Below are positions 6,206-57,655 of a stretch of 64,000 nucleotides of DNA, in pieces; within the stretch, counting starts at the first letter, position 1, and the number at the start of each line of letters is the position of its first letter. The position numbers were made by a program, and so were the translations under genes. The notes beneath the pieces were generated by a model. The model had not been told where the DNA came from and made no database searches. It saw nothing but the letters and a program-made list of their open reading frames with translations. The DNA is from an uncultured Lactobacillales bacterium (GTDB lineage: Bacteria; Pseudomonadota; Alphaproteobacteria; CAYJES01). The stretch covers positions 799 through 64,798 of the forward strand of contig CAYJES010000007.1 of NCBI GenBank assembly GCA_964369365.1. Direction: 5' to 3'.

Positions 6206-7321
6206 ATGACTAAAGTAAAAAAGGTTATTAATTTACAAAGTGGTGTAGAGGCCACAAAACCGAGAGATGAAAGTTTTGATTCTATTCAAAATGGAGTTCC
6301 TATTTACGCTGATAATTTGCTGGAAGCTTATACAAGGCAAATTGAGCCAAAAGACTTTTTAAAGATATGTCAGAAAAAGTATGCTGGCGGTGATATGCAC
6401 AAAATGACAAGTATGGAAGGTTTGATGTATATTTCTTCGCTTTCTGAAAACAATAAGAGCGATGAAGCAAAACAAATGCTTGTAGATTATGTAAAAGTTT
6501 ATGGAACTAAAGACATATTTAGATTCCCAAGAACTGTTGATATTGCAACAGAAATAAAAATTTCAGATAAAAATATTGAAAAGGCAAAAGTTGTTTATGC
6601 TCATCTTCAAAAAAATAGAGATGAAAAATTATTAGATAAAATGATAGAGGGTAAATCAGTTGCTATTGTTGGTAGTGCTCCTTTTGAAAAAGGAAAAGGC
6701 AATGGTCCAACAATAGATTCTTATGACATTTCAATCAGATTTAATAATTATGTTTTAAATGATGAACATAAAATTGACTATGGATCTAAAACGGATATTT
6801 TTGCAAGAAACACAATAAATGATGATGTAAAAGATAGGCCAAATGATAATTATGATTTGACCATTTTACAAGGTGATTTTAAGCGTGGACCGTTAATGTT
6901 TGAAGTAAAAGATGGTAAACAGATAGAGCATTTGGATTCTTGGCATAGAGATATTTTGGCAGGCAAAAACTATTATTCAATTGCCCCAGAAACTACTAAA
7001 AGTTTGAAGCAAGCATCAGGAATTTACCATTCTACTGCGGGTCTTGCTGTATTTTGGGATATTTTAAGATCTAAAAAAGGCCAAACAAATGATATAGCAG
7101 TTTATGGTCTAGGTCTAAGTAAAGAAGCTTCTGATAAATTTGCGGATCACTATTACGAAACAAGAAGCGCTGAAGATAGAGCAAAATATTCAAAAGGCCA
7201 TGATTTTGGTAAAGAAGCAGGGTTTATAGGTATGGTTATTGAAGATGCTGAAAAAGTGAAAAAGTACTTTAATCAAATAACTTCACCATTGGCAGTTTCT
7301 ATAGTAAAAGAAGGAAGATAA
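6206..7321 (+). CDS. Putative glycosyltransferase with a Cst-II/GT42-like (sialyltransferase-fold) core. Short paralog of the protein at 54900..56936.
   Basis: VAIVGSAPFEKGKGNG...IDSYDISIRFNNY resembles the Cst-II VIIAGNGPS...DVFRCNQFY nucleotide-sugar-binding N-terminus. A later HSTAGLAVFWDIL...VYGLGLS segment resembles Cst-II TSGVYMCAVAIALGYKEIYLSGIDF. The first roughly 120 aa (YTRQIEPKDFLKICQKKYAG...MYISSL) are shared with the paralog. Confidence 0.35.
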   Translation: MTKVKKVINLQSGVEATKPRDESFDSIQNGVPIYADNLLEAYTRQIEPKDFLKICQKKYAGGDMHKMTSMEGLMYISSLSENNKSDEAKQMLVDYVKVYGTKDIFRFPRTVDIATEIKISDKNIEKAKVVYAHLQKNRDEKLLDKMIEGKSVAIVGSAPFEKGKGNGPTIDSYDISIRFNNYVLNDEHKIDYGSKTDIFARNTINDDVKDRPNDNYDLTILQGDFKRGPLMFEVKDGKQIEHLDSWHRDILAGKNYYSIAPETTKSLKQASGIYHSTAGLAVFWDILRSKKGQTNDIAVYGLGLSKEASDKFADHYYETRSAEDRAKYSKGHDFGKEAGFIGMVIEDAEKVKKYFNQITSPLAVSIVKEGR

Positions 7322-7323
7322 AA

Positions 7324-7734
7324 ATGACAACGCTTGTTAATAATACTGTAAAAGTACAAGATAATAATTTGCAGTCAAAACCTAAATTTGTGAAAAATGT
7401 GGTGGCAGGAGTTGCTGTTGGCGCAGGTTTATCTATAATAGAAAAGTTAGATAATATAAGTTTGACTACTATGAATAATTTTGGAGATGTTATCACTGTT
7501 TTAACTTGTGGAGCAATGTTTTTAGCAATACCACAAATCACAAAAAATGCGGTGTTTGACATTACTAAGGGTAGAAAACCGCATAGAAGTATTTCTAATA
7601 CAGGGGGAATGTGCATTGGTTCTGGCGCAATGCTTGCGGTTGCTAATATTTCTAGTGGCGACACAGCGATAGGAGTGGGCGTTACCGTGATAGGGGCGCT
7701 TGTTCTTGCTAAGATGTATCAAAATACAAAATAA
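7324..7734 (+). CDS. Gly/Ala-rich small membrane protein (hypothetical)
   Basis: The ATG lies 2 nt after the upstream stop, suggesting translational coupling. Glycine-zipper-like hydrophobic segments. Confidence 0.4.
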   Translation: MTTLVNNTVKVQDNNLQSKPKFVKNVVAGVAVGAGLSIIEKLDNISLTTMNNFGDVITVLTCGAMFLAIPQITKNAVFDITKGRKPHRSISNTGGMCIGSGAMLAVANISSGDTAIGVGVTVIGALVLAKMYQNTK

Positions 7735-7798: not shown

Positions 7799-8185
7799 TT
7801 ACTTATCTTTTTTGCTAAGTTCTTTTTTGATTTCACCTAGACGCTCATAAATTCCAAACCAAACCATCAAAAGTTCGCAAGATATGCGTAAGGCAAGTAA
7901 TGCAAGTGGAATGTATAATAAAGTCATTAAGAAGTTACCGATACTACTGGCTGTTAAAAGCCAAATTAATGAGTATGCAAGTAATACAAATAAACCAATC
8001 CAATAAGCTGCTTTTATAGCGATTAATGCATAAGTTTTTTCAAAAGTTAGAAATTGGAAATAATCATATTTTTTAATTTTATCATCAAAAGATTTAACTT
8101 TTTCTGTGATTCCATCCCAATTGATAGCTTTGCGCGCAGATTGTTTTTTTTCTTTTTTTTCTTCTTTTTTTTCATTTTCGCTCAT
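7799..8185 (-). CDS. Small membrane protein with a Lys/Glu-rich N-terminus (hypothetical)
   Basis: 128 aa. Two predicted TM helices. The N-terminus is encoded by three T8 homopolymer tracts at 8144-8172. Confidence 0.4.
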   Translation of the reverse strand: MSENEKKEEKKEKKQSARKAINWDGITEKVKSFDDKIKKYDYFQFLTFEKTYALIAIKAAYWIGLFVLLAYSLIWLLTASSIGNFLMTLLYIPLALLALRISCELLMVWFGIYERLGEIKKELSKKDK

Positions 8186-16064: not shown

Positions 16065-18491
16065 TTATGCCATTTCTAAATATTTTTGAACAAAGTTTTC
16101 TTCGCCAAATTCACGCATTAATTGTTCCGCTAATACAACGTGTTTACGACCAGAAGAATAAAGTTTTAGGTAAGGTCCAAGAGGTCCTAAGTTTACGTCC
16201 AAAATGACAGATTCACCGATAGCTGGACGAGATACCAAAATACCATATTTTAAATCTTTAAACTCTCTTCCGAAAATGAAATCTTTTTCACGTGGAGTTA
16301 GTCGCCAATTTTCATAATCTTCTTCCATACCTTGTGGATTTTTAAAGAAGATAACCGTTTGACACTGTCCCCTGATAACTTCGCCAAGTCCAAGGCTATC
16401 CACGATATTAGGTTGTTGGAAAGCGCATAGGAATGCTTGACGTTTTTTACGACCTTCTTGCAAACCTACGATAAAACTGTCCCTAAACATTGGGTGTTTT
16501 AACATCGGCGCAGTTTCATCAATCATAACCAAAGATGGATCACCAGTTGAGCTTGCTACTGTATTAATACGGTGCATAACATAGCTGATAACCGCTGGGG
16601 CTAGTAGTTCGTCTTCAAAAATATGGGTAAAGTCAAATGCCATAAATCTAGTGGTCATATCTAAATCATCGTTTGGTGAGTTAAATATACGTCCATATTG
16701 CTGGTCGTTAATCCAACGATAAAGCTCTCTTCTCATATGGCCTGTTGGTGAAAAACAGCTTTTATAAAGGTTTTTAAGAGTACGTTGGTTGAAATCTAAA
16801 TAATCAAAAGAGGTGGTAACCGCTCTTGCAATTTCACGTTCCGAATAAGAATCTGTTGCCATGGTAATAGATTTAATCCAACGACGTAAGAATGCCCTGT
16901 TTTCAGGAGTGTCTTGTGCTGATAATGGGTTAATAGCAGTTGCGTTTTTATCGCCATCAAAGTTTACATAAGCTCCTCCAATAGCTTTTGTAAAAATTTC
17001 AACACCTTTATGACGGTCAAAAAAGTATACACGGAGGTTGCTATGACGCATAGCTTGACCTGCTAAGAATGCTAGTAGTGTTGTTTTACCTTGACCAGTT
17101 GGACCAATAATCACAGCGTGGGCTACTGCTGCATCTTCTGTTGATACGTGGAATTGCCATTTATATGCTGTACCTGTTACAGTTCTGAATACTGCAATTG
17201 CCCCATCACCCCAGTCACTTTTTGCAAGTCCTTCTGTAGATGTTTCAAGACATAGCGCACAGCCAATCGCTCTTGATAAATATAAATAAGTTCTTGGATA
17301 TATTTCATAAGTTGGGAATTGGGCGAAGAATGAAGCTTCTGCTACCCAGCCATCTCTTACAGGAGTTACGCCATGAAGCCTAGTTAATCTTTCTACCTCA
17401 ATCTGTCCGAATTTTAACTCTTCCATACTTTCAGCAAAAACAAATAGTGTCATAGCGTACTCATGAATGGTTTGAGAACTTTCAGAAGCGCTATCCATTG
17501 CTTCTAGTACCATTGTAAATTGATCTGTGTTACCTTCTGCCACCGAAGTTGTAAATGATAATTGTCTTCTTCTGATTAAATCTGCTGCAGCCTTTGCTTT
17601 ATTTTTTGGTTTTATATTATGAAGCAGTGTTAATTCTACGTCTAATGATAGTAAATCAGCCACCATTTGTTCGTCAATATAATCCCCGCAAGAACGCATT
17701 CCCATAACAATGCCTAGTTTTTCATTCTCACCTGCAATAAATTTAATTAATCCCTTATCACCAGTAAAATGAATATAATCAGCAGTTAAAAGTCCGTTTA
17801 ATTCTGTTGTTTCTAAGTCGCCAACTTTAGGAGATGGTCTAGATAACGGACTTGCGATATTTGCAAATAAATGAAAAGGTGAAAGTTCTGGCGGAGAATT
17901 TTCATCCTCATACATTGGAGTCATGACAAATTCATCTAACATAGATTCAATAGCTATTATGCATTGTTCCAAATCTTTTTCTGCATTATCCCTATCAATA
18001 ACAGATAGAATAAGATGATGCTCATTTGTGTAAATCCTGTCTAAATTATCCTGCCATCTTTGGGCAACTTTTGATAGTAACTTATTTTCGAAACCAACAA
18101 GATTATCAACAGGAACACGTTTTCTTAAAGTTATAAATCTAGCAGTTATATTGCTTTCTGAAAGATTATCAACTACTCTCTTTTTTAAATCTAGTAAAAT
18201 TTCACGTTCTTTTGGGGCAAGTAGGGTCATGTCCTTGCCTTTTAGCTTGAACACCCTTACTATCGTATTGTCTTGGCATTCAATTGTCATTCCATCTTCT
18301 CTTAATCGTCTGAATGGAAGGAAGTCTGCTACCCTTGTTTCTCTTGGGCGGGGCAAGAAAAATGCACCTATTTTTGAAACTATTACTGCAATAAAAGCAG
18401 CTGCAGCACAAAACCCGATTATACCGATTGTTGTTTCAACTGTCGATATACTCTCAACAAATACAACATTTGCAAGTAAGCTAGGATCCAA
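16065..18491 (-). CDS. virB4: Type IV secretion system ATPase VirB4/TrbE family
   Basis: 808 aa. N-terminal TM segment. Walker A (GPTGQGKTT). Conserved VirB4 C-terminal ATPase domain. It overlaps the upstream virB3 stop. Confidence 0.85.
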   Translation of the reverse strand: MDPSLLANVVFVESISTVETTIGIIGFCAAAAFIAVIVSKIGAFFLPRPRETRVADFLPFRRLREDGMTIECQDNTIVRVFKLKGKDMTLLAPKEREILLDLKKRVVDNLSESNITARFITLRKRVPVDNLVGFENKLLSKVAQRWQDNLDRIYTNEHHLILSVIDRDNAEKDLEQCIIAIESMLDEFVMTPMYEDENSPPELSPFHLFANIASPLSRPSPKVGDLETTELNGLLTADYIHFTGDKGLIKFIAGENEKLGIVMGMRSCGDYIDEQMVADLLSLDVELTLLHNIKPKNKAKAAADLIRRRQLSFTTSVAEGNTDQFTMVLEAMDSASESSQTIHEYAMTLFVFAESMEELKFGQIEVERLTRLHGVTPVRDGWVAEASFFAQFPTYEIYPRTYLYLSRAIGCALCLETSTEGLAKSDWGDGAIAVFRTVTGTAYKWQFHVSTEDAAVAHAVIIGPTGQGKTTLLAFLAGQAMRHSNLRVYFFDRHKGVEIFTKAIGGAYVNFDGDKNATAINPLSAQDTPENRAFLRRWIKSITMATDSYSEREIARAVTTSFDYLDFNQRTLKNLYKSCFSPTGHMRRELYRWINDQQYGRIFNSPNDDLDMTTRFMAFDFTHIFEDELLAPAVISYVMHRINTVASSTGDPSLVMIDETAPMLKHPMFRDSFIVGLQEGRKKRQAFLCAFQQPNIVDSLGLGEVIRGQCQTVIFFKNPQGMEEDYENWRLTPREKDFIFGREFKDLKYGILVSRPAIGESVILDVNLGPLGPYLKLYSSGRKHVVLAEQLMREFGEENFVQKYLEMA

Positions 18492-24800: not shown

Positions 24801-25307
24801 GACGAAGTCGTAAAAGAAAAAGCAGGATATTATTCAGTGGCTGGAATTATTTCTGGGTCAAGAAGTGGGGTTACAAAAACAGGGAAAAAATACTTTATTG
24901 TATCGCTTGCAGATAAAACAGAATCCAAAGATTTCTTTATGTTTGGTGAGGCATTTGAAAAAAATAGAGATATGTTCGAATCGGAAAAAGTTTTGCTAGT
25001 TGAATTAAAAGGCGAAATGAAAGCCGATGACAGCGGTATAAGATACAGCATAATAAGCGTTGATGATTTGGAAAAAAGAAAAGCTGCTCTTAATGCTGAA
25101 TTTGAAATTACTATTAGCCATGATAAAGTAATTAATGAATTAAACAAGTTGCTAGATACTGTAAAAGGCGGCAAAAATGACGTGTTTATATGTTGTAATG
25201 CTTTGGGACATAAAGTAAATATGGAAATTGGAAAATATAATATCGATAAAGAATTGCGTTATAAAATATCAATTCTTGATGGTGTTGATAGCGTCGAAGA
25301 AGGCTGA
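21873..25307 (+). CDS. dnaE: DNA polymerase III alpha subunit
   Basis: 1144 aa. N-terminal PHP domain (HLRVHSGYSLLEG). Polymerase core motifs (PDFDIDF, GLLKFDFLGLKTL). OB-fold C-terminus. Confidence 0.95.
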   Translation: MTNFIHLRVHSGYSLLEGAIKVKDLLELCKKYNMPAVAITDTGNMFNGADFSVNASKDGIQPILGVQLWIKRKPTSIYEKEPEKASQLVLLVQNQQGYNNIIKLVSKSFLDMTATTEHPFIYLEDLKEYSEGLIALSGGVTGIIGSCLLSRNKEDAAENTLLLKDIYGDRFYMEIMRHGDDKEMMTEGDFLNLAYEHNIPLVATNNAFFIDRDFYEANDALICIAEKKYVSDEDRDRLTEEHYFKSSEEMIELFSDLPEAIENTVKIAKRCGFMIEKTSVMFPIYTADDMGDLSEFELMKKRAESGLVEKFGKMGEVDKEEYEKRLEYEINIINQMGFCGYFLIVSDFIMYSKQNGIPVGPGRGSGAGSLVAWCLGITDLDPLRFGLLFERFLNPERVSMPDFDIDFCQEKREKTIQYVQEKYGYDKVAQIITYGKLQAKAVIRDVGRVLQIPFPVVDKFAKKIPTKNPDNPNKPVTLKMAVDLEPELAQMINEERDIKKMYDISRKLEGLYRNASTHAAGVVIGPRPLDTIIPLYKDIRSPTPVTQFDMKWVEDVGLIKFDFLGLKTLTVIDKAVQLIEKNHGVKIDIADIPLEQKEAFELLHSAQTSGVFQLESGGMRDVLRQVKPDSLEEITAVVALYRPGPMANIPTYANRKFGREPIESIHEKLDDLLSETYGIIVYQEQVMEIAKILAGYSLGGSDLLRRAMGKKKKEEMDAQRKVFVDGCLKNEISEQKATEVFNLMEKFAEYGFNKSHAAAYALIAYQTAYLKALYPAPFMAATMTLDINNTDKLAEFKVEIDKMGIEILTPDINKSEVEFSVENGKIRYALGAIKNVGSAAMQSIIDERNENGEFKSLEDFTNRYDVHQVNRKCLENMAKAGCFDSLELNRNKIFQNIDRIINAGSNASMDRKSNQISLFGDAPVTDIIKFEACEDWTQIERLRFEQDALGFYLSAHPLDGINRALKRLKVTNLVDIDEVVKEKAGYYSVAGIISGSRSGVTKTGKKYFIVSLADKTESKDFFMFGEAFEKNRDMFESEKVLLVELKGEMKADDSGIRYSIISVDDLEKRKAALNAEFEITISHDKVINELNKLLDTVKGGKNDVFICCNALGHKVNMEIGKYNIDKELRYKISILDGVDSVEEG

Positions 25308-26231
25308 TAAAGATTGTTTGTCAGGATAAGCGATCAATAAAATTTCATAAAATAGAGTGTTATTTTCTTTTACGATTTTAAATTTGTAACCTAAGTCTAG
25401 TTTTTCAATAAAAGGCTTTATTTCAAAAAAATCTTCCCCTCTATGATAAAGAGATATCAATAAAATAGGTTTGTGTTTTTTTAATGTTTCAACTGCGCCT
25501 TTTATAACATTAAATTCAAATCCTTCGACATCTAACTTTAACAGACCTAAATTTAAATTGTTATCACTGGCAAAATCATCAATAGTTGTTATATTTGTTT
25601 CTTGAGTTGGCTTTGTTTTGTTTTTAGCGAGTAAGGTTGATCCTGGGCCTGCGATATTTATTGTTCCTGAACCTTTTTTATCACTAAGCGCCATACTAAT
25701 AACAGAAACATTATCCATATTATTCATTGCAATCGTTTCGTTTAAAAGTTTTTGATTTTTTATGGTTGGTTCAAAACAATAAATATGTTTTGGGCGATAT
25801 TCTGAAAAAACAAGGGCGCTGTCGCCTACGAATGCACCGCCATCAATGATGTCTTTATTTTTTATTTGTTCTCTGATTTTATGATTTAGAGATTTCAAAC
25901 CACAATGGTTGATAAAAACGTTGTCTTCATAACGTTTGCCAGCAATTTTGCCTTTGTACTTTTCTGGGAATGGTTTTTGATTAATTTCTTCATTGCTTAA
26001 ATAATCTTTTGGGTTAATAAAAAAATTATCGCCTAAGATATCATATGCTTTCATAAAAAGTTTGTATCGTTCAATAAACGTATTCACAGTGTTTGTAGAC
26101 TTTTCATCCAACCCAGAGATAAGCTCTTTTGTGCGAATTTCAATGTCGTTATTTTCGAAATAATTTTTAAAATCATCAATAAAAGATGCTATCATTTTAA
26201 AACGAAAAATTTGCCGTTCTGATGGGTGCAT
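25269..26231 (-). CDS. FkbM family SAM-dependent methyltransferase
   Basis: VIDGGAFVGDSALVF...CFEP...LLKLDVEGFEFNVIKGA FkbM signature. The stop overlaps the dnaE 3' end by 39 nt (convergent). Confidence 0.7.
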   Translation of the reverse strand: MHPSERQIFRFKMIASFIDDFKNYFENNDIEIRTKELISGLDEKSTNTVNTFIERYKLFMKAYDILGDNFFINPKDYLSNEEINQKPFPEKYKGKIAGKRYEDNVFINHCGLKSLNHKIREQIKNKDIIDGGAFVGDSALVFSEYRPKHIYCFEPTIKNQKLLNETIAMNNMDNVSVISMALSDKKGSGTINIAGPGSTLLAKNKTKPTQETNITTIDDFASDNNLNLGLLKLDVEGFEFNVIKGAVETLKKHKPILLISLYHRGEDFFEIKPFIEKLDLGYKFKIVKENNTLFYEILLIAYPDKQSLSAFFDAINTIKN

Positions 26232-27692
26232 TTACTCCTCCAATAGATGTTTTTCTAATACTTTTTTGATGGTTTGCATGGTTTTAACTCTTGCCCTTTT
26301 TTTGTTGTTAGTAGCAATAACAAACCAAGGAGCATATCCAGTATCGGTCAAACTTATCATATCAGAAAATGCTTCGTCGTAATTATCCCATTTATCACGA
26401 TTACGCCAATCTTCATCGGTGATTTTCCATTTTTTGTATTCGGTATCAGACCTTGCTTCGAATCTCTCTAGTTGTTCCTCTTTATCGATATACAACAAAA
26501 ATTTTATTACAATGTTATCCGAATCGGTTAGTTGCTTTTCAAATTCGTTAATTTCGTTATAACCTCTTAACCATGAACTTTCATCGCTGAAGCCTTCTAT
26601 TCTTTCCACCAATACTCTGCCGTACCAGCTTCTGTCAAATATGGTAAGAAGTTTTTGTTCGGAAAATTTGTTCCAAAATCTCCATAAATAATGGTGTTTT
26701 TTTTCATCTTCTGTTGGCGCAGATATTGGTATAATGCTGTATAATCTAGGGTTTAATGAAGAAGTTATCCTTAAAATAACCCCACCTTTGCCCGATGCGT
26801 CAGGTCCTTCGAAACATAAAATTACTTTTTTGCCCCTGTCTTCTGCTCTTGTGAAAAGTTCGTTTAATTCAGAACGTAACAATTTTATTTCTTTATCGTA
26901 TTCTTGGCGTGGTAATTTTTTTTCAAATTCTATCTCAGAAAAATCAACTTTCTTTTCAATTGGAATTATATTTTCTTTTGATAATTCTGGTGGTTTATAA
27001 AAATTACCAGATTTTATTATGTCGTCAATGTTGTTGCAAAAATTTTTTAAAGTGGTTGAAACTCTTTCGCTTCTGGTGTTATCGTTTATTATATTCCATG
27101 GCGCATATTCTTTATGAGTTTTATCAATAATATCGCTTAACGTTTCTTTTAATTCATCATAGTGTTTAAAGCTGTCGTAATCGTATTCCATCATTTTCCA
27201 ACGTAATTCTTTGTCTTCTTCAAGATAATTAAGATATTTTTCCGTGTGTTTTTTTGAAATATCAAGCCAGTATTTTAAAATGATATAACCATTGTCAGCC
27301 AAAGTTTTTTCAAATTCTTTAATTTCATTTATTTTGTTTTCGTATTCTTCTGATGAAATTTTTTTGTATGCTCTGTCGGTTAGGGGTTCTGTGTACCATG
27401 AACTAAGATAAACGCCAAGTTGTCCTGCACTAGGCAAATCCCTCCAAAACCTTCTGTACGGATTATCATTAGGAGGTAATTTTTTATCATATGCATTTTG
27501 TAAAATATTCCTTGCATTCATCCAGCTCCATAAATGGTTGAAGCTTGAATTTCTGCCGCTGCCTGAAAGCCCAGCAAGAACCATAATTACAGGAAGATTG
27601 TTTTTTGCAATATGAAGTTGCGTTTTTAATAAACAAGTCCTGATTTTGTCTTCATCTTCTTCATTAAAATCTACATAAAATAATTCGCTCAT
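26232..27692 (-). CDS. ppk2: Two-domain polyphosphate kinase 2 family protein (PAP/PPK2-like). The N-domain P-loop is degenerate.
   Basis: 486 aa with two PPK2 repeats. The C-terminal repeat has an intact Walker A (FEGPDASGKGG). The N-terminal repeat has a degenerate one (LAGLSGSGRNS). Confidence 0.8.
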   Translation of the reverse strand: MSELFYVDFNEEDEDKIRTCLLKTQLHIAKNNLPVIMVLAGLSGSGRNSSFNHLWSWMNARNILQNAYDKKLPPNDNPYRRFWRDLPSAGQLGVYLSSWYTEPLTDRAYKKISSEEYENKINEIKEFEKTLADNGYIILKYWLDISKKHTEKYLNYLEEDKELRWKMMEYDYDSFKHYDELKETLSDIIDKTHKEYAPWNIINDNTRSERVSTTLKNFCNNIDDIIKSGNFYKPPELSKENIIPIEKKVDFSEIEFEKKLPRQEYDKEIKLLRSELNELFTRAEDRGKKVILCFEGPDASGKGGVILRITSSLNPRLYSIIPISAPTEDEKKHHYLWRFWNKFSEQKLLTIFDRSWYGRVLVERIEGFSDESSWLRGYNEINEFEKQLTDSDNIVIKFLLYIDKEEQLERFEARSDTEYKKWKITDEDWRNRDKWDNYDEAFSDMISLTDTGYAPWFVIATNNKKRARVKTMQTIKKVLEKHLLEE

Positions 27693-29788
27693 TTTAATTG
27701 TTTAACCTCTCGTTTAAGTCTTGCTGTTCTGCCAGAACCGTATAATGACGGGTTTTCCATAAAAAATTCTTGGGCGCAAAATCCGCCAGATTTTACTGTT
27801 TCTCTATTGTAATTCATCTCACTATCAAGTATCCATGAATTAGCGTTATCTTTTATATTAGCATACATGATTTGCGTTAAAATTTGCTTTTTAACTTTTG
27901 TTTTTTCAATTGGAATTAATGTTTCAACTCTTTTTATCATATTTCTACGCATTAAATCTGCTGATGAAATATATACTTTTGCACTTTGCGAAGGAAATTT
28001 TTTGCCGTTGCCAAAACAATAAATTCTAGAATGTTCTAAAAATCTTCCTACTATACTTTTCACTGTAATGTTTTCGGATAAACCTTTTATTCCTGGGCGC
28101 AAAGAGCATATTCCACGAATTATAAGTTTTATTTTTACACCTGCTTTTGATGCTTTATAAAGTGCATCTATGACCACATCATCCATAAGAGAGTTTGCTT
28201 TTGCCATTATTGTTGCTGGCCTTCCAGTATTCGCGAATTCAATTTCTTTTTCAATTAATCTTATTAATTCATCGCGTAAGTCAAAAGGAGCAGTAATTAG
28301 TTTTTTAAATGGTTTTAATTCTTTTTTTGTTTCTAAAAAATCAAAAACATTATCAGCATCATTTCCTAAATCTTCATCATCTGTGAAAAATGATAAGTCG
28401 GTGTAAATGTTGGCAGTAATAGGGTTATAGTTGCCTGTGCCATAATGAACATATGATTTAATTTTGTTTTTTTGTTTTCGCCTGATCAATGATATTTTGC
28501 TGTGGAATTTATATTTTGGATGTCCGAAAATAACTTTTACTCCATGACTTTCCATGATTTTAGCCCAACCTAGATTAGCTTCTTCGTCAAAACGAGCGCG
28601 AAGTTCGATGTATGCTGTAACATCTTTGCCATTCTTAGCCGCATCCATCAATGCATACATAATAGGGGATTCTTTATTTGTTCTGTATATAGTTTGTTTA
28701 ATAGAAATTACATCATCATCATTTGCGGCTTGTTTTAAAAAATTTACAACTATTTCATATGATTCATATGGATGATGAACAAGAATGTCACCTGATTCAA
28801 TAGCTTTGAAATAATCGTTATCAAATTTTTTAACCCGTTCAGATTTTCTTGGGGCGTAATCTTTGAATAATAGTTTTTTCTTAAATGGATAGATGATTTG
28901 CCCTAAATGTCTGTATGCTAAAAAATCTGAAAAAGTTATGTCATTATCATCAAGTTTTAATTTCTTTTTTAACAATTCTATTCCGGTTTTGCTTGAACTT
29001 GAATGGATGTCAAGCAGAGTTAATTTGCCTTGTTTGCGCTTTTTAAGAGCTTCTTCAAACCATGCAATCATATCTTCAGCTTTTTCATCAAAGGCTATTA
29101 AAGTGTCTCTTATTACCGAGAAGGTGGCTAGGTGATTTGTTTGCTTGCTGTTAAATACTTTACTTGCGAATAATAAAATTAAATCCTCTACAGGAATTAA
29201 AGAAATTTTATTTTTATTGTTTGCAATAGTTACAAATCTTTTTGTTCTTTTCGGCAGCGATATAATAGAGTTTACGCCTTCTACCTCAAATAACAAATTA
29301 ATGCTGAGGTTTTCAAGAAATGGAAAATCATTATCAATTTTATTTAAAATTATAGTAGGCAAAATATCATCTATAAAAACTTTTTTCAAAATTGAAATGT
29401 CTTTTTTCTTAAGCTCGTCTTTTGATAAAATGTGAAAATTGGTTTTTGATAGCTCTTTTTTTATTTCAGAAAATGATGCATATTGTTTTTTTTGTAATTG
29501 GATTATATAGGGATAACAAAGCTTTATTTGCTCTTTAAAGCTAAGTCCATCAATCGATACATTTTCTTCATCAACTCTTTTTTCTTTTAATGATGCGAAC
29601 CTAACCATGCAAAATTCATCTAAATTAGAGCCAGAAATGCTTAAAAATCGCAATCTTTCAAGCAAGGGAAGCGTATTCTTTAGACTTTCTTCTAAGACTC
29701 TTTCATGAAATTTAAGCAGTGATAACTCTCGGTTGAAAAACCGCTTTGGCGAATATGCAAGATCTTTTTGTAAAAATTTAAATTCCAT
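27689..29788 (-). CDS. ppk: Polyphosphate kinase 1
   Basis: 699 aa. N-domain RFLSISGSNLDEF. Phospho-His region KFHSK. Two PLD-like C-domains. It overlaps the ppk2 start by 4 nt. Confidence 0.9.
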   Translation of the reverse strand: MEFKFLQKDLAYSPKRFFNRELSLLKFHERVLEESLKNTLPLLERLRFLSISGSNLDEFCMVRFASLKEKRVDEENVSIDGLSFKEQIKLCYPYIIQLQKKQYASFSEIKKELSKTNFHILSKDELKKKDISILKKVFIDDILPTIILNKIDNDFPFLENLSINLLFEVEGVNSIISLPKRTKRFVTIANNKNKISLIPVEDLILLFASKVFNSKQTNHLATFSVIRDTLIAFDEKAEDMIAWFEEALKKRKQGKLTLLDIHSSSSKTGIELLKKKLKLDDNDITFSDFLAYRHLGQIIYPFKKKLLFKDYAPRKSERVKKFDNDYFKAIESGDILVHHPYESYEIVVNFLKQAANDDDVISIKQTIYRTNKESPIMYALMDAAKNGKDVTAYIELRARFDEEANLGWAKIMESHGVKVIFGHPKYKFHSKISLIRRKQKNKIKSYVHYGTGNYNPITANIYTDLSFFTDDEDLGNDADNVFDFLETKKELKPFKKLITAPFDLRDELIRLIEKEIEFANTGRPATIMAKANSLMDDVVIDALYKASKAGVKIKLIIRGICSLRPGIKGLSENITVKSIVGRFLEHSRIYCFGNGKKFPSQSAKVYISSADLMRRNMIKRVETLIPIEKTKVKKQILTQIMYANIKDNANSWILDSEMNYNRETVKSGGFCAQEFFMENPSLYGSGRTARLKREVKQLK

Positions 29789-30373: not shown

Positions 30374-31498
30374 ATGAAATATATATTTATTACTTTTATA
30401 ATTATCCTTTCTTCTACATCTTTTGCGAAGAAAAATCTAAATTCTCTTGGAAAATTTTATTATGAAGAAAAGTTTGATAAAAAATTCGGTGCAACAACTG
30501 CAATAATAGAAAGCAACTTAAAAGATCTTTCAAGTATTGGTGATAAAAATGCGGATTATATGCTTGGAATGCTTTATACTCAAAATGATAATTATAAACA
30601 AGCTTTTGAATATTTCGCAAAAGCATGCGAAAAAAATGATGCAAAATCTTGCAATAATGCAGGATTTATAAAACATCACAATCTTGAAAAACTAAAAGAA
30701 CTGGAAGATGAAAAAGCTTCTCAATATTATAAAAAAGCGATTGAATTAAATGACAACTATGCCCTATTTAATATGGCAAGATACTATATAAGAAAAAAGG
30801 ATTATTTTAATAGTTATCTTTATTATGAAATTGTAAAAGAAAGATTTGATGATAAGTTGACAAGACAGATAACAATTCTTAATAAAGATAGGATGTATGC
30901 AAATATTTCTCAAATAGAAAAAGAATATTTGAAATATTATTATCCTGTCTATCTTGAAAAAATAGCAGGTAAAAAAATCATAGGAAATAGAAAAATAAAC
31001 CCTAATTTGCCAATCCCTTCGGACGTTTCTAAGATTAAACATAACGAAAAATTTATTAAATATAAAGAAGAAGTTCCTAAAAACACAAAACTTTTAATGA
31101 TAAAGTGGATGCCTGAAAAAAACGACTTTATTGATATTCCAATTTCAATTGTTACTGAAGATATTTCAAGTAACGAAGCCCTAGCAAGCCTGACTTATCG
31201 TTATCATATACCTGCTGTGATAACTTTTACACTTACCTCTAAAAAAACAATATTGCCTGTTTTGTTGGGTGATGAATTAAAAGTGTATATTTATGCAGGA
31301 ACTAAGCATGAAAAAAATGATGAATGGGAAATAAAAAATGTAAGTCCTATGATGTCATTGAGTATAAATAAAAAAATAGAATATGATGGAGAATGGCAAA
31401 TTTTCACCCTTTCTCCTCAGATAAAAAGTGATATAAAAGTTAAATTTTTAAACAAAATGACAAATAAAACATTGGATTTAGAAATGTTAACGAAATAG
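30374..31498 (+). CDS. Secreted Sel1/TPR-like repeat protein with a beta-rich C-terminal region (hypothetical)
   Basis: Signal peptide. Sel1-like repeats (ADYMLGMLYTQNDNYKQAFEYFAKACEKNDAKSCNNAGFI...). It begins 4 nt after the sixA-like stop. Confidence 0.5.
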   Translation: MKYIFITFIIILSSTSFAKKNLNSLGKFYYEEKFDKKFGATTAIIESNLKDLSSIGDKNADYMLGMLYTQNDNYKQAFEYFAKACEKNDAKSCNNAGFIKHHNLEKLKELEDEKASQYYKKAIELNDNYALFNMARYYIRKKDYFNSYLYYEIVKERFDDKLTRQITILNKDRMYANISQIEKEYLKYYYPVYLEKIAGKKIIGNRKINPNLPIPSDVSKIKHNEKFIKYKEEVPKNTKLLMIKWMPEKNDFIDIPISIVTEDISSNEALASLTYRYHIPAVITFTLTSKKTILPVLLGDELKVYIYAGTKHEKNDEWEIKNVSPMMSLSINKKIEYDGEWQIFTLSPQIKSDIKVKFLNKMTNKTLDLEMLTK

Positions 31499-31542
31499 TA
31501 TTAATTTTGTGGCATCATAAGGCAGGATTTTGTATTTATTAG

Positions 31543-32463
31543 ATGGATTTATTAAGGAGCAACTTTATTATGGTAAAGTATTTTATATTAGCATTAATAG
31601 CGCTTTGTTCGAGCAACGTGAAGGCTCAAGAATTAACTTTAGAGCAAGAAGGAATTCAGTATGAAGATATTTGTTCTGGAGGTATGAGTGTTTCTGAACT
31701 TTTAGAAAAATCAGAAAAATTAAAATCTTCTGATGTTGATAATAGTGACTTTTTTTCAACAAATTGCTTGTTGCTTGCTGCTCATAAAAATGACAGTAAA
31801 GCTCAATATCTGTTAAGTGAAACATACAAGGTTGGTTATGGAATACCTGCAAATACTTCATATGCATATAAATGGGCAAGGATTGCAGCTTTTAACGGCT
31901 ATGAAATAAGCGAAGGTGATTTCGAAAAAATGGAAGCAGAAATGGATATTGATGACATAAAAAGAGTTGACGGCGAAGTTAAAAGTTATGTCGCATTTCA
32001 AGAAAAAATGACCAAAACAAGTGGTTCAGACGTGAAAAATATGCTGATAAATTCAGGTAATTTTGATAACGTAACGCAAGATCAATTAGCTGCAATAGAA
32101 GCAGTTTATAGTAAAATAGAATCGTTATTTAATAATGATAATGTAGAAAGTTTAGGAAATGCAGCAAAAGATTTTGTTTCTTCATCATCAACTACTAGAT
32201 TGCAACAAAATCCGCAAACAGCGAGTACAAGAAATGTTGATAGCAGAACTAATCGCCAAGAACAAGATCGCATGATGGAAGAAGAAAGAATGCGCGAACG
32301 TGAGGCAATAGAACGGGAACGAGAAGAAATTGAACGCAGACGCGAGCAAGAAATGGAAAGAATGAGTGAACGTGAAACGGAAGAAAGAGAAGTTAGGGCA
32401 TCAAGAGGAATAGATTTTTATAACGATCCATATAATCCGGAATTTAACCCTCCACCAAGATAA
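31543..32463 (+). CDS. Secreted Sel1-repeat protein with an Arg/Glu-rich low-complexity C-terminal tail
   Basis: Signal peptide. Sel1 repeat (AQYLLSETYKVGYGIPANTSYAYKWARIAAFNGY). C-terminal REQDRMMEEERMREREAIEREREEIERRREQEMERMSERETEEREVR. Confidence 0.55.
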   Translation: MDLLRSNFIMVKYFILALIALCSSNVKAQELTLEQEGIQYEDICSGGMSVSELLEKSEKLKSSDVDNSDFFSTNCLLLAAHKNDSKAQYLLSETYKVGYGIPANTSYAYKWARIAAFNGYEISEGDFEKMEAEMDIDDIKRVDGEVKSYVAFQEKMTKTSGSDVKNMLINSGNFDNVTQDQLAAIEAVYSKIESLFNNDNVESLGNAAKDFVSSSSTTRLQQNPQTASTRNVDSRTNRQEQDRMMEEERMREREAIEREREEIERRREQEMERMSERETEEREVRASRGIDFYNDPYNPEFNPPPR

Positions 32464-53776: not shown

Positions 53777-54742
53777 TTATTCACATAAAACTTTTGCTTC
53801 TTGGTAATTTTTTCCTAAAACCATTTCGTTCATGTCAATGATTTCATAGTTTTCAGGGTTAGAAAAAAGTTCTTTTAATGCGAGGTTGCTAAGCATATGA
53901 CCTGATTTATGACCTTTATACTTTCCAATTAAAGTATATCCTGCAGAATACAAATCGCCAATAGCATCAGTGATTTTATGTTTTATAAATTCATCTTCGT
54001 AACGAAGGCCTTCTTTATTTAAAATTTCCATACCGTCGATAACAATACCAGTTTTAAGGCTGCCGCCTTTTATAAGTCCGTTTTGGCGTAAATATTCAAC
54101 TTCTTGTAATAAGCAAAAAGTGCGGGCTTGGCAAATTTCAGTTTTAAAAGATTTTAAATCAAGTTGATATGATAGTTTTTTATCTGCTGCTATTGTATTT
54201 GGATAATCTAGATAAAAATCAAACTCTAATCCAGATTTAGCAGGTTCGAGAGTTACATAAGTGTCATTATGTTCCACTTTTATAGGTTTTAATATTTTTA
54301 CAGCTTTTCTTGGGGCGTTTTGTTCTTTTATTCCTGCGCATTCTATTAAAAATAAAAATGGAGAAGCACTACCATCTAATATAGGAAGTTCAGGACCAGA
54401 CACCTCTACAATGGCATTAGTTATACCCATAGCATGAAAAGATGCCATTAAATGTTCAATAGTTGAAACAGTAACGCCTTCTTCGTTCGAAAGACAAGTG
54501 CACATTCTTGTGTCTGAAACATTTGAATATAAAGCTTGAACAACATTATCTTTATTTAAAACATCTGATCTAATAAAACGAATCCCAGTATCGACATTAG
54601 CTGGTTTCAAAGTTAAAGAAATTCGAGCCCCAGAATGAAGCCCCACCCCAGTACAAGCAACAGTATCAGCTAAAGTTTTTTGTGCATATACAAAAGTACT
54701 AGAATTACCATTAGATTCCATAAAATTATCGTTCCTAAACAT
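53777..54742 (-). CDS. lpxC: UDP-3-O-acyl-N-acetylglucosamine deacetylase
   Basis: TGVGLHSG...ISLTLKPA N-terminus. Conserved HKxxD and SGH motifs. The true start may be the internal Met 7 codons downstream. Confidence 0.9.
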   Translation of the reverse strand: MFRNDNFMESNGNSSTFVYAQKTLADTVACTGVGLHSGARISLTLKPANVDTGIRFIRSDVLNKDNVVQALYSNVSDTRMCTCLSNEEGVTVSTIEHLMASFHAMGITNAIVEVSGPELPILDGSASPFLFLIECAGIKEQNAPRKAVKILKPIKVEHNDTYVTLEPAKSGLEFDFYLDYPNTIAADKKLSYQLDLKSFKTEICQARTFCLLQEVEYLRQNGLIKGGSLKTGIVIDGMEILNKEGLRYEDEFIKHKITDAIGDLYSAGYTLIGKYKGHKSGHMLSNLALKELFSNPENYEIIDMNEMVLGKNYQEAKVLCE

Positions 54743-54899
54743 GCTATTATCCTATATTTCATTTCTGTAATTGGTTAATACTATACCAGAATGTTATTAT
54801 TTGCGAATCAATCATTGTTTCGGTTTGTTACAAAAAATATTAGTTAAAATTTAATTGTTTTACCTGTAAACTGAATAAATAATATGGAGGACTAAAATT

Positions 54900-56936
54900 A
54901 TGGTAAAAATTTTTACAAGTGGTGAAACAATATCAAATTCTTCTCATGAACAATATGAAAGTATTCAATGTGGGATTTTTATAGGTGCTGAAAGTTTATT
55001 ACAAGCATATATAAGGCAAATTGATCCAAAAGAGTTTCTTAAAATATGTGAAAGAAATTTTGCAGGCAAATCAATAAATGAAATCCCAAGCATGGATGCT
55101 TTGATGTATATTTCGTCTCTTATTGACAATAAAAAGGATTTTTTGGCAGAAAAAATGCTGTCTGAATATATTAAAACTTATGATACAAGGGATATTTTCA
55201 GATTTTATAAAGTAACAAAACTTGCAAGCCAAAAAGGTATTTTAGATGATAATATCGAAAAAGCTTTATATGTTTATGGCGAACTTAAAAATGCAAGAAA
55301 TGAAGGCCTGCTTGCAAAAATGCTTGAAGGCAAAAAAATAGCAATAGTAGGTAGCGCCCCATCTGAAATTGGGAAAGGTCATGGTGAAGAAATAGATAGT
55401 TATGACCATTGTATTAGGTTTAATAATTTTAAAATTTTACCCGAGCACGAGGTCGATTATGGTTCGAAAATTGACATATGGGCCAGAAATACGGTAAATG
55501 AAGATGTTGTTGATAGAAAAGATGAAGACTTTTCAATAATAATATTACAATCTGATTTTGAATTTGGGCCTGTAATGTATGACCATATGGATATTATGTA
55601 TCGTGATTTAAAGCAAGGTAAAAAATACTATTCTATTGAAATGGCGACAATAAAAGAATTAAAAATAGCTTCTAGAGTATATCCTATTTCTGCTGGATTT
55701 ACTGTGTTTGGAGAGATATTAAGAATTAAAAAAGGTGATACTTCATCATTTGGATTGTTTGGTTTTGCTCTTGATGATGAGGCAGCAAGTAAATTTGGAG
55801 ACCATTATTTTGAAGTAAGAAATGAAGATGAAATAAAAAATGATTTAATAGGATGTTTTTTCACTGAAGAAGCTGGATTTATGGCTTACGCACTTAAAAA
55901 ATCACAAGAATTAAGTCGTATATGGGAAAGAAGAAATGCTGTTATTGTAAATAATCCAAAACAAAAAGGAGCTGGAGATGGGGTTATAGCAATATGTGAA
56001 GCGTTAAGACGACATATCCCAGATTTAGAATATAACTTTGTTGAGACAGCTGATGAAGTAACAGAAAAGCCATATATAGTTTGGAGTGTTGGTCCTGATA
56101 CTACTGATATTGCAATGGAAATCATAAAAAAACACAATCCTGATTTTGTGTTTGGTATGAAAGACCCATATGATGATGCTGATGTTGAAGAATATGTATT
56201 ATATAGTAAAATTATAGATACAATGGGAACTTTACAAACAGCTAAAGTAAATGTAGCACGTCCTGATTTAGTTTACTTTCCAGATTTTCCTCCATTTTCT
56301 ATGACTAAATATGGGCTTGGGCAATTTAAGTATGCTCCTGTCTTAGATATTTTTAATCCTGATTTATTGATTTCAATTGGTGGAGCTGATCCTTATACAA
56401 ACCGTGATGTAGTAGAAGGAGATATTGATAATTTATTAAAATTAGCTCAAAATTTTAAAGAAAATATCGGTGGAAAAGTTGCATTTTTAACTAGTAATAG
56501 AACAAATGATAAGGTGATAGAATATCTTAAATCTAAAAAAGATAAACAAGACGCTTTGTCTGATTTTAAAAGTGCAACGCTATATTATGATGATAAAGAA
56601 TTTAAAGATTTAAAAAGTGTTTATCAAGCATTTATAATAAACAGTAATTATTTTGTTCAAACAGATGATAGTTTATCAATGATGGCAGAATTAACGGTGA
56701 GAGAGGGTAAATTAGTAATATATCAAACATTAGGAACTGACAGCTCAACTCAACGTAGAATTAATGTTGCAAATTCTGTTGTTGAATCTGGAAATGCTAT
56801 AATTGTAGATGAAAATATTATAAATTCAGATGATAAAAATGAAATATTCAAAAAAGTAGAAAATTCAAAATCGTTAGAAGGAGTGATAGATAGAAAAATA
56901 GCAAGGATGTTGTACGATATAACAAAAATTAAATAA
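54900..56936 (+). CDS. Two-domain putative glycosyltransferase: Cst-II/GT42-like N-terminal module (paralog of 6206..7321) fused to an ELM1/DUF1022-like GT-B-like C-terminal module
   Basis: The N-terminal 370 aa align with the 6206 ORF (KKIAIVGSAPSEIGKGHGEEIDSYDHCIRFNNF...VDYGSKIDIWARNT). The C-terminal part (ISIGGADPYTNRD...KVAFLTSNRTNDK...QTDDSLSMMAELTVREGKLVIYQ) resembles ELM1-family proteins. Confidence 0.35.
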   Translation: MVKIFTSGETISNSSHEQYESIQCGIFIGAESLLQAYIRQIDPKEFLKICERNFAGKSINEIPSMDALMYISSLIDNKKDFLAEKMLSEYIKTYDTRDIFRFYKVTKLASQKGILDDNIEKALYVYGELKNARNEGLLAKMLEGKKIAIVGSAPSEIGKGHGEEIDSYDHCIRFNNFKILPEHEVDYGSKIDIWARNTVNEDVVDRKDEDFSIIILQSDFEFGPVMYDHMDIMYRDLKQGKKYYSIEMATIKELKIASRVYPISAGFTVFGEILRIKKGDTSSFGLFGFALDDEAASKFGDHYFEVRNEDEIKNDLIGCFFTEEAGFMAYALKKSQELSRIWERRNAVIVNNPKQKGAGDGVIAICEALRRHIPDLEYNFVETADEVTEKPYIVWSVGPDTTDIAMEIIKKHNPDFVFGMKDPYDDADVEEYVLYSKIIDTMGTLQTAKVNVARPDLVYFPDFPPFSMTKYGLGQFKYAPVLDIFNPDLLISIGGADPYTNRDVVEGDIDNLLKLAQNFKENIGGKVAFLTSNRTNDKVIEYLKSKKDKQDALSDFKSATLYYDDKEFKDLKSVYQAFIINSNYFVQTDDSLSMMAELTVREGKLVIYQTLGTDSSTQRRINVANSVVESGNAIIVDENIINSDDKNEIFKKVENSKSLEGVIDRKIARMLYDITKIK

Positions 56937-56943
56937 AAAAATA

Positions 56944-56978
56944 AAGAGCAGACTTTTTTTTAAGTCTGCTCTTTTTCT
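56944..56978. terminator. Bidirectional intrinsic terminator
   Basis: Perfect 11-bp stem aagagcagact / agtctgctctt with a T-rich loop and flanking A- and T-runs. Confidence 0.65.
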
Positions 56979-56992
56979 TTATTGATTGCGTG

Positions 56993-57655
56993 TTATTCGA
57001 CGCTGCTTTTTTCAAGGGCATCAATAATAATATCTGCACAAATATTAAAGTCGTCAATTTTTTCAGTATTAATAACTAAGTCAAAGTTTGTAGGATCATT
57101 AAGTCTGGAACCAAACACATTCCATACGAATTTTCCACTGGCAGTTGTTTCTGTTTTGTAAATTTCAATTGCTTCATCCTTGTTACAATTTTCTTTATCC
57201 ATAATTCTTTTTATACAAGTTTCAATAGGGGCAATAATCCTTACTCTTATATCTGCTAAATCTTTTAATGCTACATGAGAACCCCTGCCGATTAATATAG
57301 AATCAGAAGAGCGAGCTAGTGCTTGGATAACATTTGTTAAATGCCTTCTTATTGTGTCGTGAGAAAGCTCTCCGCCTCCAAAAATGCGATATAACCAAAA
57401 ATCTTTCGAATCGCCTGTAACATCTGTGATAATCGAAAAAGCATCTTTGTCAGTGCCAGTAAATTCAGCAAGACTAGTTACGATAGAGCGTTCAAAAATT
57501 TTAAGATGAAGGCGTTCAGCTAAAATATCAGCAATTTCACTGCCGCCACTGCCCGGAACTTTGGAAATAGTAACAATTTTGCGTTTTTTAATTTCGTCGC
57601 CAACAGCTCCTTGAGCTCTTAAATCATCTATAAGTTTTTGAATATCTTTTTCCAT
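56993..57655 (-). CDS. Cytidylate kinase-like family protein (Cytidylate_kin2-type P-loop protein)
   Basis: IVTISKVPGSGGSEIADILAERL N-terminus. LIGRGSHVAL. C-terminal FDLVINT. Confidence 0.5.
   Translation of the reverse strand: MEKDIQKLIDDLRAQGAVGDEIKKRKIVTISKVPGSGGSEIADILAERLHLKIFERSIVTSLAEFTGTDKDAFSIITDVTGDSKDFWLYRIFGGGELSHDTIRRHLTNVIQALARSSDSILIGRGSHVALKDLADIRVRIIAPIETCIKRIMDKENCNKDEAIEIYKTETTASGKFVWNVFGSRLNDPTNFDLVINTEKIDDFNICADIIIDALEKSSVE

Follow-up and report, generated by a model that had tools for sequence, protein, structure and literature searches.

The window analysed here is a stretch of 64,000 nucleotides from contig CAYJES010000007.1 of an uncultured bacterium. An open reading frame (ORF) at 54900..56936 on its plus strand encodes a two-module protein, referred to below as the target. 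The target consists of two non-overlapping homology blocks. Judging from profile matches, its N-terminal module (N-module) is a glycosyltransferase family 29 (GT29)-like domain. Its C-terminal module (C-module), judging from profile matches and structure modeling, is a divergent ELM1-like domain (PF06258) with a GT-B fold. A previous interpretation made from the DNA letters and ORF translations (the sequence-only reading) had described the ORF as the second, extended copy of a family. This description was confirmed. A tblastn search of the target against the window showed that a short paralog at 6206..7321 matched target residues 5-344 (46-48% identity; 46% in this search, E 2.6e-96); residues 345-678 had no other match anywhere in the window. 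The features of the gene, and the evidence for each, were as follows.

54886..54890, plus strand: Shine-Dalgarno sequence GGAGG, 9 nt 5′ of the ATG (direct sequence reading)
54900..56936, plus strand: coding sequence of the two-module glycosyltransferase-like protein, 678 amino acids (aa), ATG start (ORF list)
55017..55334, plus strand: helical N-terminal subdomain, residues ~40-145, common to the bacterial GT29-like family (AlphaFold2 (AF2) model, all-helical, predicted local distance difference test score (pLDDT) ~85-95)
55335..55928, plus strand: GT29-like catalytic region, residues ~146-343 (PF00777, family hidden Markov model (HMM), profile against 2WML)
55338-55427, plus strand: motif L, residues 147-176 (alignment to GT29)
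within 55335..55928, plus strand: motif S remnant YPISAG, residues 261-266 (alignment)
within 55335..55928, plus strand: motif III DHYFE, residues 301-305 (alignment)
within 55335..55928, plus strand: motif VS region GCFFTEE, residues 318-324 (alignment)
55854..55856, plus strand: Cys319 codon TGT, at the position of the GT29 catalytic-base His (His319 of porcine ST3Gal-I, pST3Gal-I) (direct codon reading, HMMER alignment)
55932..56933, plus strand: ELM1/KdoT-like GT-B module, residues ~345-678 (AF2, Foldseek, PF06258, alignment A3)
within 55932..56933, plus strand: conserved loop GGADPYT, residues 494-500 (A3 invariant columns)
56490-56504, plus strand: conserved loop TSNRT, residues 531-535 (A3 invariant columns)
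56661-56690, plus strand: conserved TDDSLSMMAE, residues 588-597 (A3 invariant columns)

The N-terminal GT29-like module

PF00777 (Glyco_transf_29) matched target residues 145-197 with a borderline score of 23.5 bits (cut-off 23); relatives of the N-module scored up to 77 bits. The GT42 family PF06002 gave no Pfam match to the target even at E≤10. A profile built from 60 single-domain relatives (A6) was searched against PDB and matched only GT29 structures (8 chains). The best match was porcine ST3Gal-I (2WML, E 3.5e-19), followed by ST6GalNAc-II, ST8Sia-III, and ST6Gal-I; no Cst-I/II (GT42) chain was matched at E≤1. The alignment of the family profile with ST3Gal-I spanned 190 residues, and the family motifs fell on sialylmotifs L, S, III, and VS. 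On these matches, the N-module is GT29-like (PF00777) and not GT42/Cst-II-like, and the GT42 assignment made in the sequence-only reading has to be given up. An exhaustive phmmer search of 1.84 billion representatives revealed 718 relatives at E≤1e-3; among the matches listed, all but six, which belong to the C-module, aligned with target residues ~60-330. NCBIfam contained no model for either module of the target.

Comparison of the sialylmotifs revealed one change at a catalytic position. Motif L of the target, IAIVGSAPSEIGKGHGEEIDSYDHCIRFNN (residues 147-176), aligned to motif L of ST3Gal-I and ST6Gal-I, and residues G151, G162, I165, D166, R173, and N175 were kept. Motif III (H-Y-[YFW]-[ED]) was present as H302-Y303-F304-E305, which aligned with HYWE of pST3Gal-I (His302). 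In motif S (P-[ST]-[ST]-G), which reads YPISAG in the target, G266 was kept and the family Pro (84%) was replaced by Ile263. Motif VS (H-x4-E) reads C319-x4-E324, and thus lacks the catalytic-base His. In a MAFFT alignment of 147 family segments, 141 of which were aligned at the motif-VS position, the residue was His in 138 and Cys in the target only. The paralog kept the His (HDFGKE). By HMMER, this column corresponds to chain residue 274 of 2WML, and adding the construct's offset of 45 gives His319 of porcine ST3Gal-I; target H302 and E324 map onto ST3Gal-I His302 and Glu324. His319 of pST3Gal-I is the proposed catalytic base and His302 a ligand of the CMP phosphate (PMC4202792). The general bases of GT29 enzymes are histidines (PMC8433944). 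Conversion of TGT to CAY requires two substitutions, so a single miscalled base cannot explain Cys319; residues 306-345 of the target contain no His anywhere.

The rest of the N-module was conserved as well as the paralog. Against an HMM of 145 other relatives, the N-module scored 261.7 bits and the paralog 255.4 bits, with a slight bias in the target's favor from the choice of relatives by similarity to it; the two proteins deviated at an equal number of conserved columns. From these scores, the N-module is best seen as a domain that is well maintained but altered at a catalytic residue, not one that is decaying overall. It may be inactive or altered. The H302A variant of ST3Gal1 is an inactive, specific glycan-binding protein (PMC12274613); because a single His mutation can turn this enzyme into a glycan binder, a binding role for the N-module is plausible. 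In the full-length AF2 model the GT29 catalytic region was poor (pLDDT 35-70) because the alignment was shallow. Family-conserved residues of the helical subdomain were L68, Y70, L74, A83, L87, and Y90.

The gene surroundings of N-domain relatives were examined in 64 GTDB loci. A NeuB match was found within 10 kb in 15 of the 64, and a match to CTP_transf_3 cytidylyltransferase (L004 reference) within 10 kb in 21. P0003, a distant N-domain relative, lies in a polysaccharide locus (L004 9111..17874) between NeuB and a GT52/CMP-sugar synthetase cluster. The cluster contains a GT52-like gene, a pyruvyl transferase gene, and a fused cytidylyltransferase plus KDN-9-P/KdsC-type phosphatase; the locus suggests a glycan containing Kdn (ketodeoxynononic acid) or another nonulosonate.

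The C-terminal ELM1-like module and the fusion

A profile scan of the C-half alone, in line with a check suggested in the sequence-only reading, gave PF06258 (Mito_fiss_Elm1) with 27.6 bits. In the full protein, PF06258 covered residues 487-597 with 25.6 bits (cut-off 27). All seven members of the C-module subfamily matched PF06258 (E 2e-13 to 1e-3, 18.7-50.6 bits), and five of the seven, with the target counted as C-half, reached the cut-off. No PF06258 similarity was detected in the acceptor-binding half of the C-module in any subfamily member. An AF2 model of the C-module, made from the 7-sequence alignment, had a pLDDT of 91.2 and a predicted template modeling (TM) score of 0.88, and consisted of two α/β domains plus a C-terminal helix. 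Foldseek comparison of this model with PDB gave 64 matches at E≤1e-3; the 50 listed were overwhelmingly GT-B glycosyltransferases and epimerases. The four best were UDP-GlcNAc 2-epimerases (5enz, 1v4v, 3ot5, 4nes; E 4e-7 to 5e-6, TM ~0.5). Further GT-B matches included MshA, TreT, TarL, GT9 heptosyltransferases, PglA, and MurG (range E 4e-7 to 1e-4, TM ~0.5). The C-module profile found nothing meaningful among PDB sequences. By profile and model, the C-module has a GT-B fold and is probably a divergent PF06258 (ELM1-like) member. The sequence-only reading had proposed such an ELM1/DUF1022-like GT-B module, to be abandoned if the region proved to be disordered and without ELM1 or GT-B similarity; a confident GT-B model and a PF06258 match were found instead. 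Ranks 10 and 18 of the Foldseek list were Tetrahymena respiratory megacomplex/complex I subunits (8gym_T1, 8b6f_A0; E ~3e-5, low TM), which is curious in that plant ELM1 is a mitochondrial outer-membrane protein.

Relatives of the C-module were few. A word-indexed search with the full-length target gave only 4 proteins. Word-indexed and exhaustive searches found six, giving a subfamily of ~7 sequences with the target. Five (P0006 to P0010; 325-361 aa, 39-43% identity) are stand-alone C-modules. The sixth, P0002 (595 aa, 48% identity), begins with the C-module-like part and continues with an unrelated extension of 260 aa, for which neither Pfam nor NCBIfam gave a match. Searching with profiles of 2- and 7-sequence C-module alignments added the five stand-alone relatives and then nothing new. 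The C-module profile found no relative among GTDB genome representatives, which thus do not include the source genome, tblastn found none on plasmids, and JGI metagenomes gave a single match, the already known P0007 contig.

Across the seven C-module sequences, which share only 38-47% identity, 47 columns were invariant (alignment A3). The invariant motifs were SVGPD, GMKDP, DTMGT, GGxDPY, TSxRT, and TDDSLSxxxE. In the S-x-R-T loop, the Ser, the second Arg, and the Thr were invariant in 7/7, and the first Arg position was occupied by N, P, or G. TSNRT (residues 531-535) lies after the second strand of the C-terminal Rossmann domain. The ELM1-like protein KdoT (A1S_2903/GtrOC1) of Acinetobacter baumannii is a CMP-Kdo (3-deoxy-D-manno-octulosonic acid) transferase of the lipooligosaccharide (LOS) inner core (PMC12856342; PMC10936431). 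It needs R180 of its SRRT motif but not R179, and KdoT can be replaced by a homolog from Rickettsia (PMC12856342). Profile coordinates and topology indicate that S-x-R-T of the C-module is probably the counterpart of KdoT SRRT. Variation only at the first Arg position fits the KdoT mutagenesis.

The two modules are joined in frame with practically no linker: similarity to the N-family extends to ~residue 344, and that to the C-family starts at 347. In the full-length AF2 model, a helix ends at residue 342 and the first C-module strand covers 345-350. Among the 150 best matches in the 1.84 billion representatives, no protein matched both target halves. Of the 150 best N-domain relatives, 43 were multi-domain proteins of at least 500 aa, all 43 matching PF00777. 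The partner in these 43 was Glycos_transf_1 (GT4-type GT-B) in 16, DUF4422 in 12, GT2 in 11, GT8 in 4, MptE-like in 4, and PF06258 in none. A GT29-like domain plus a GT-B domain is, by these matches, a common design, and the ELM1-like partner is so far unique to the target. The earlier claim that the fusion is unusual was therefore correct in regard to the ELM1-like partner but not in regard to the design, since 16 of the 43 have a GT-B partner; the target has the ordinary design of a multi-domain glycosyltransferase. In a Rosetta-stone test with HMMs of both modules against all fetched loci, only the window carried both. The two halves do occur as separate genes, a point that the sequence-only reading had proposed to check: the C-module stands alone in five relatives and has another extension in the sixth, and the N-domain stands alone in the paralog and many relatives. 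In different lineages, then, the ELM1-like module has different fusion partners, on one end in the target and on the other in P0002.

Genomic context

The target gene is flanked on both sides by genes of the opposite strand. These genes, the shared terminator, and the paralog are listed below.

53777..54742, minus strand: lpxC (lipid A biosynthesis), divergent from the target, with a common 157-bp intergenic region (translation recognized)
56943..56974, both strands: bidirectional intrinsic terminator hairpin, 13-bp perfect stem, 6-nt loop, common to the target and the convergent gene (terminator scan, folding)
56993..57655, minus strand: cytidylate-kinase-like gene, convergent with the target, sharing the terminator hairpin (PF13189, 130 bits)
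6206..7321, plus strand: short paralog P0005, 371 aa, GT29-like domain alone (tblastn; PF00777, 41.4 bits)

From its translated sequence, we take the product of 53777..54742 to be LpxC (UDP-3-O-acyl-GlcNAc deacetylase). Past lpxC, away from the target, lie bamD, recN, and ligA; on the downstream side, pepA comes after the cytidylate-kinase-like gene. The hairpin has an A-run 5′ of the stem and a T-run 3′, and was called as a terminator on both strands. The scan found 3 terminator-like sites in the region (0.4 expected). The folding energy was -19.1 kcal/mol on the plus strand (z -5.3) and -22.9 kcal/mol on the minus strand (z -8.0), and 0/200 shuffles folded as well. Because both neighbors are on the opposite strand and there is no co-directional neighbor, the target is a single-gene unit. 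These findings bear out the strong bidirectional terminator and the monocistronic unit described in the sequence-only reading. The target and the cytidylate-kinase-like gene are not co-transcribed. CMP is the leaving group of GT29-type and KdoT-type reactions, and its recycling via the cytidylate-kinase-like product is conceivable.

The paralog lies directly 3′ of skp/ompH (5552..6052). Two small hydrophobic ORFs of unknown function come next, at 7324..7734 (plus strand) and 7799..8185 (minus strand). An exact look-up of the target and of the paralog gave no recorded encoding contig for either.

The window is ordinary chromosome of a low-GC (33%) Gram-negative bacterium with alphaproteobacterial hallmarks: ligA-recN-bamD-lpxC, DUF3576, Tim44-like plus MltA, mfd/recG, and lolCD-dnaE. 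The GC content of the target was 0.296 and that at third codon positions (GC3) was 0.150, compared with 0.334 ± 0.027 and 0.229 ± 0.037 for window ORFs of at least 150 aa. The GC3 of the C-half was 0.129 and that of the N-half 0.171; the paralog was intermediate (0.183). The low GC and GC3 of the target may reflect foreign origin or low expression. No transmembrane segment was indicated in the target protein (maximum Kyte-Doolittle 19-residue window 1.1), as expected for enzymes that act at the cytoplasmic face during core assembly.

Two relatives of the C-module have neighbors of note. P0002 (L002 360..3771) is convergent with kdsB (CMP-Kdo synthetase; NF003952, 203 bits, cut-off 193) and a histidine phosphatase gene. 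The stand-alone P0009, on a metagenomic contig (L006 1..4187), lies in the order recN-pepA-[ELM1-like] on the same strand, 6 bp past pepA. In the window, recN and pepA are within 5 kb of the target, on either side, giving partial synteny with P0009. This arrangement suggests that an ELM1-like gene was present in the recN/pepA neighborhood before fusion.

Several observations elsewhere in the window were made in passing. An Rfam scan of the window gave one tRNA only and no rRNA. In 25269..29788 (minus strand), an ORF for an FkbM-type methyltransferase shares 39 nt with the 3′ end of dnaE on the opposite strand; the polyphosphate kinase genes PPK2 and PPK1 lie side by side after it. At 16065..18491 (minus strand) there is a solitary gene for a VirB4/TrbE-like type IV secretion ATPase (PF03135, 51.8 bits); no other type IV secretion genes were recognized among the neighboring ORFs scanned. 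Two adjoining ORFs at 30374..32463 (plus strand) had weak tetratricopeptide (TPR) and Sel1 repeat matches only, and the first has the lowest GC of the window (0.261). TPR/Sel1-type repeat proteins are frequent in host-associated bacteria.

Proposed function and comparison with known systems

The reading that we prefer, with about even confidence, is that the target is a two-module glycosyltransferase, cytoplasmic and either soluble or peripheral, that takes part in assembling the envelope glycan, most likely the lipopolysaccharide (LPS) or LOS core, and in which the C-module is active. We infer the donor sugar, the acceptor, and the identity of the active module as follows. Module 1 (residues ~40-343) belongs to the bacterial GT29-like family, whose members would be inverting enzymes that act on CMP-activated ulosonic acids (sialic acid, other nonulosonic acids, Kdo). 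Module 2 (residues ~345-678) is probably a divergent ELM1/KdoT-like GT-B domain whose donor-binding half resembles the KdoT family. Both modules are thus members of families that use CMP-activated 2-keto-3-deoxy acid sugars. The G-G-x-D-P-Y loop, the S-x-R-T loop, and the T-D-D-S-L-S-M-x-x-E helix start of the C-module lie at the C-terminal edge of the second Rossmann sheet. The C-module is likely to be an active, KdoT-like transferase, with CMP-Kdo or a related compound as donor and an acceptor set by the divergent N-terminal half of the module. The N-module, with motifs L and III kept and the base gone, would perform altered chemistry or bind substrate or product without catalysis, thereby positioning the acceptor; it may still bind a CMP-sugar or an ulosonic-acid-bearing product. 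Conventional GT29-type transfer would be supplied by the His-containing paralog.

Several observations weigh against this reading. The target protein (P0001) forms a singleton cluster in a 5.8-billion-protein collection and occurs on a single contig. Its PF06258 score is borderline (25.6/27.6 bits against 27), and in all seven subfamily members the match is confined to profile positions ~123-282 of 304 (the second Rossmann, donor-binding half). SRRT is reported to be invariant in KdoT homologs; the target has S-N-R-T. The stand-alone C-module loci contained no GT29-like gene, and 0/64 GT29-like loci contained the C-module; with no second locus carrying both modules, conserved gene neighborhood gives the fusion no support. 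The kdsB gene beside P0002 is convergent with it and is not co-transcribed. No kdsA/B, waaA, neuA/B, or other core-glycan genes are present in the window, and the adjacency of target and paralog to lpxC, bamD, and skp could be coincidence, these being housekeeping genes.

An unlikely alternative is a genuinely bifunctional enzyme: each module would be catalytically active, the two would attach successive sugars, and Cys319 or a substrate-assisted mechanism would stand in for the His base. Relatives with GT29-like plus GT2, GT4, GT8, or DUF4422 domains are common, and glycosyltransferases that act in sequence are usually built this way. In other respects the N-module is conserved as well as the paralog, with motif L, H302-Y303, and E324 kept. 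KdoT itself apparently needs no enzyme base (PMC12856342). However, the altered position is that of the proposed GT29 catalytic base (PMC4202792; PMC8433944), with His in 138/141 and Cys only in the target, and the motif-S Pro is also gone (P263I). The two domains of the bifunctional enzyme proposed in the sequence-only reading are present, but its addition of two sugars is put in doubt by Cys319. We know of no glycosyltransferase with Cys as general base.

A more speculative reading, distinctly improbable in our judgment, is that the target is the founding tandem CMP-ulosonic-acid transferase of an unconventional lipid A inner core in a low-GC alphaproteobacterium. The C-module would add Kdo or a Kdo-like sugar, and the Cys-bearing N-module would be a product-binding "reader" that hands over the acceptor, or a sialyltransferase-fold enzyme performing a new thiol-dependent chemistry.

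We consider it very improbable that the C-module lacks catalytic activity and serves, as supposed for plant ELM1, as an adaptor or regulatory domain that only tethers or regulates the GT29-like domain. In favor of this, plant ELM1, for which no enzymatic role is known, recruits a dynamin-related protein (cited in PMC10936431), and the acceptor-side half of the C-module has no PF06258 match. However, the 47 invariant positions concentrate in post-strand loops of both Rossmann halves (GGxDPY, SxRT, TDDSLS), the pattern of a ligand-binding cleft; stand-alone versions of the C-module have no GT29 partner nearby; and the catalytic residue was lost in the N-domain, not in the C-domain. The regulatory C-half entertained in the sequence-only reading is likewise unlikely in view of bacterial ELM1-like KdoT, a proven CMP-Kdo transferase (PMC12856342).

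We regard it as scarcely probable that the C-module acts as a GT-B-fold nucleotide-sugar 2-epimerase or hydrolyzing epimerase (WecB/NeuC-like) and supplies precursor to the GT29-like module. UDP-GlcNAc 2-epimerases are the four best Foldseek matches, and ELM1-family proteins are often annotated as nucleoside-diphosphate-sugar epimerases (PMC4172580). However, sequence profiles lead to PF06258 and not Epimerase_2, identity to the epimerases is 8-14%, and glycosyltransferases score nearly equally in the same Foldseek list. Kenyon et al. called the annotation incorrect (PMC4172580), and the sole characterized family member is a transferase (PMC12856342).

An assembly or sequencing artefact that joined two adjacent genes would fit a singleton protein on one contig, the start of all other C-module relatives where residue ~346 aligns, and a C-half GC3 (0.129) below that of the N-half (0.171), but it is highly improbable given an in-frame, linker-less junction at which both homologies come to within ~3 residues of each other, with no out-of-frame stretch, stop codon, or internal start codon near residue 345, and with an AF2 helix end at 342 and C-module strand start at 345-350.

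In the target, one polypeptide beside lpxC physically joins two poorly characterized bacterial families, both with eukaryotic descendants. Eukaryotes are thought to have inherited both Golgi GT29 and plant mitochondrial ELM1 from alphaproteobacteria. The function of bacterial ELM1-like proteins was established only in 2024-2025, when KdoT was found to be responsible, independently of WaaA, for the addition of a third Kdo in the LOS inner core. The fusion leads to the hypothesis that bacterial GT29-like proteins may share with KdoT-type enzymes both the CMP-activated keto-acid sugars that they use and their lipid A/core acceptors. A divergent subfamily of ELM1-like proteins, its acceptor-binding half being different, may extend the idea of "split Kdo transfer" to other bacteria. 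The target carries a naturally occurring His-to-Cys change, and its genome also encodes a paralog with the His; the pair offers a comparison for the conversion of a sialyltransferase fold to a glycan-binding module, which in ST3Gal1 was engineered with one His mutation (PMC12274613). Practical impact is modest: the target is a singleton known from one contig, and glycosyltransferases with several domains are commonplace.

Among known systems, GT42 (Cst-I/Cst-II of Campylobacter jejuni) shares with GT29 the broad fold class (GT-A variant 2), a CMP-sialic acid donor, and a His base (PMC5811610), but no sequence-level relationship with the target was detected. Bacterial GT29 sequences with the four sialylmotifs were described by Petit et al. 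in 2018 (PMC5811610); our literature search found no demonstrated activity for any bacterial GT29-like protein. The target resembles GT29 (ST3Gal-I 2WML/2WNB and the bacterial family) in motif L, motif III H-Y-F-E, and the motif-VS Glu, and relatives in the bacterial family adjoin NeuB and CMP-sugar synthetase genes. It differs in having Cys319 for the motif-VS His and Ile for the motif-S Pro. Unlike eukaryotic GT29 enzymes, the target is predicted to be cytoplasmic, and its helical N-terminal subdomain takes the place of a Golgi membrane stem. The multi-domain relatives P0024, P0033, and P0043 (GT4-type GT-B), P0015 (GT2), and P0016 (GT8 plus DUF4422) likewise combine a GT29-like domain with a second glycosyltransferase fold; they differ from the target in their partner, which is PF06258 in 0/43.

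The closest comparison for the C-module is with KdoT, which moves Kdo from CMP-Kdo onto Kdo2-lipid IVA and was modeled as an inverting GT-B enzyme (PMC12856342). Deletion of A1S_2903, annotated as an "ELM1-like fission protein", truncated the core to Kdo2 (PMC10936431). In 2014, Kenyon et al. had predicted that the Mito_fiss_Elm1 proteins GtrOC1, 14, 19, and 22 of Acinetobacter LOS outer-core loci are glycosyltransferases (PMC4172580). The C-module differs from KdoT in its borderline PF06258 match (27.6 bits), in an N-terminal acceptor-binding half without detectable similarity, and in having SNRT for SRRT; it belongs to a very small separate subfamily (~7 sequences) and is fused to a 345-aa GT29-like domain. 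It resembles KdoT in its GT-B fold, in a PF06258 match over the donor-binding Rossmann half, and in its module size of ~330 aa. Both lack a transmembrane segment and have a link to LPS genes in the neighborhood. In the C-module, S-x-R-T comes after strand 2 of the C-domain; if it aligns with KdoT SRRT, the target keeps the essential Arg of KdoT (R180) and lacks the dispensable one (R179).

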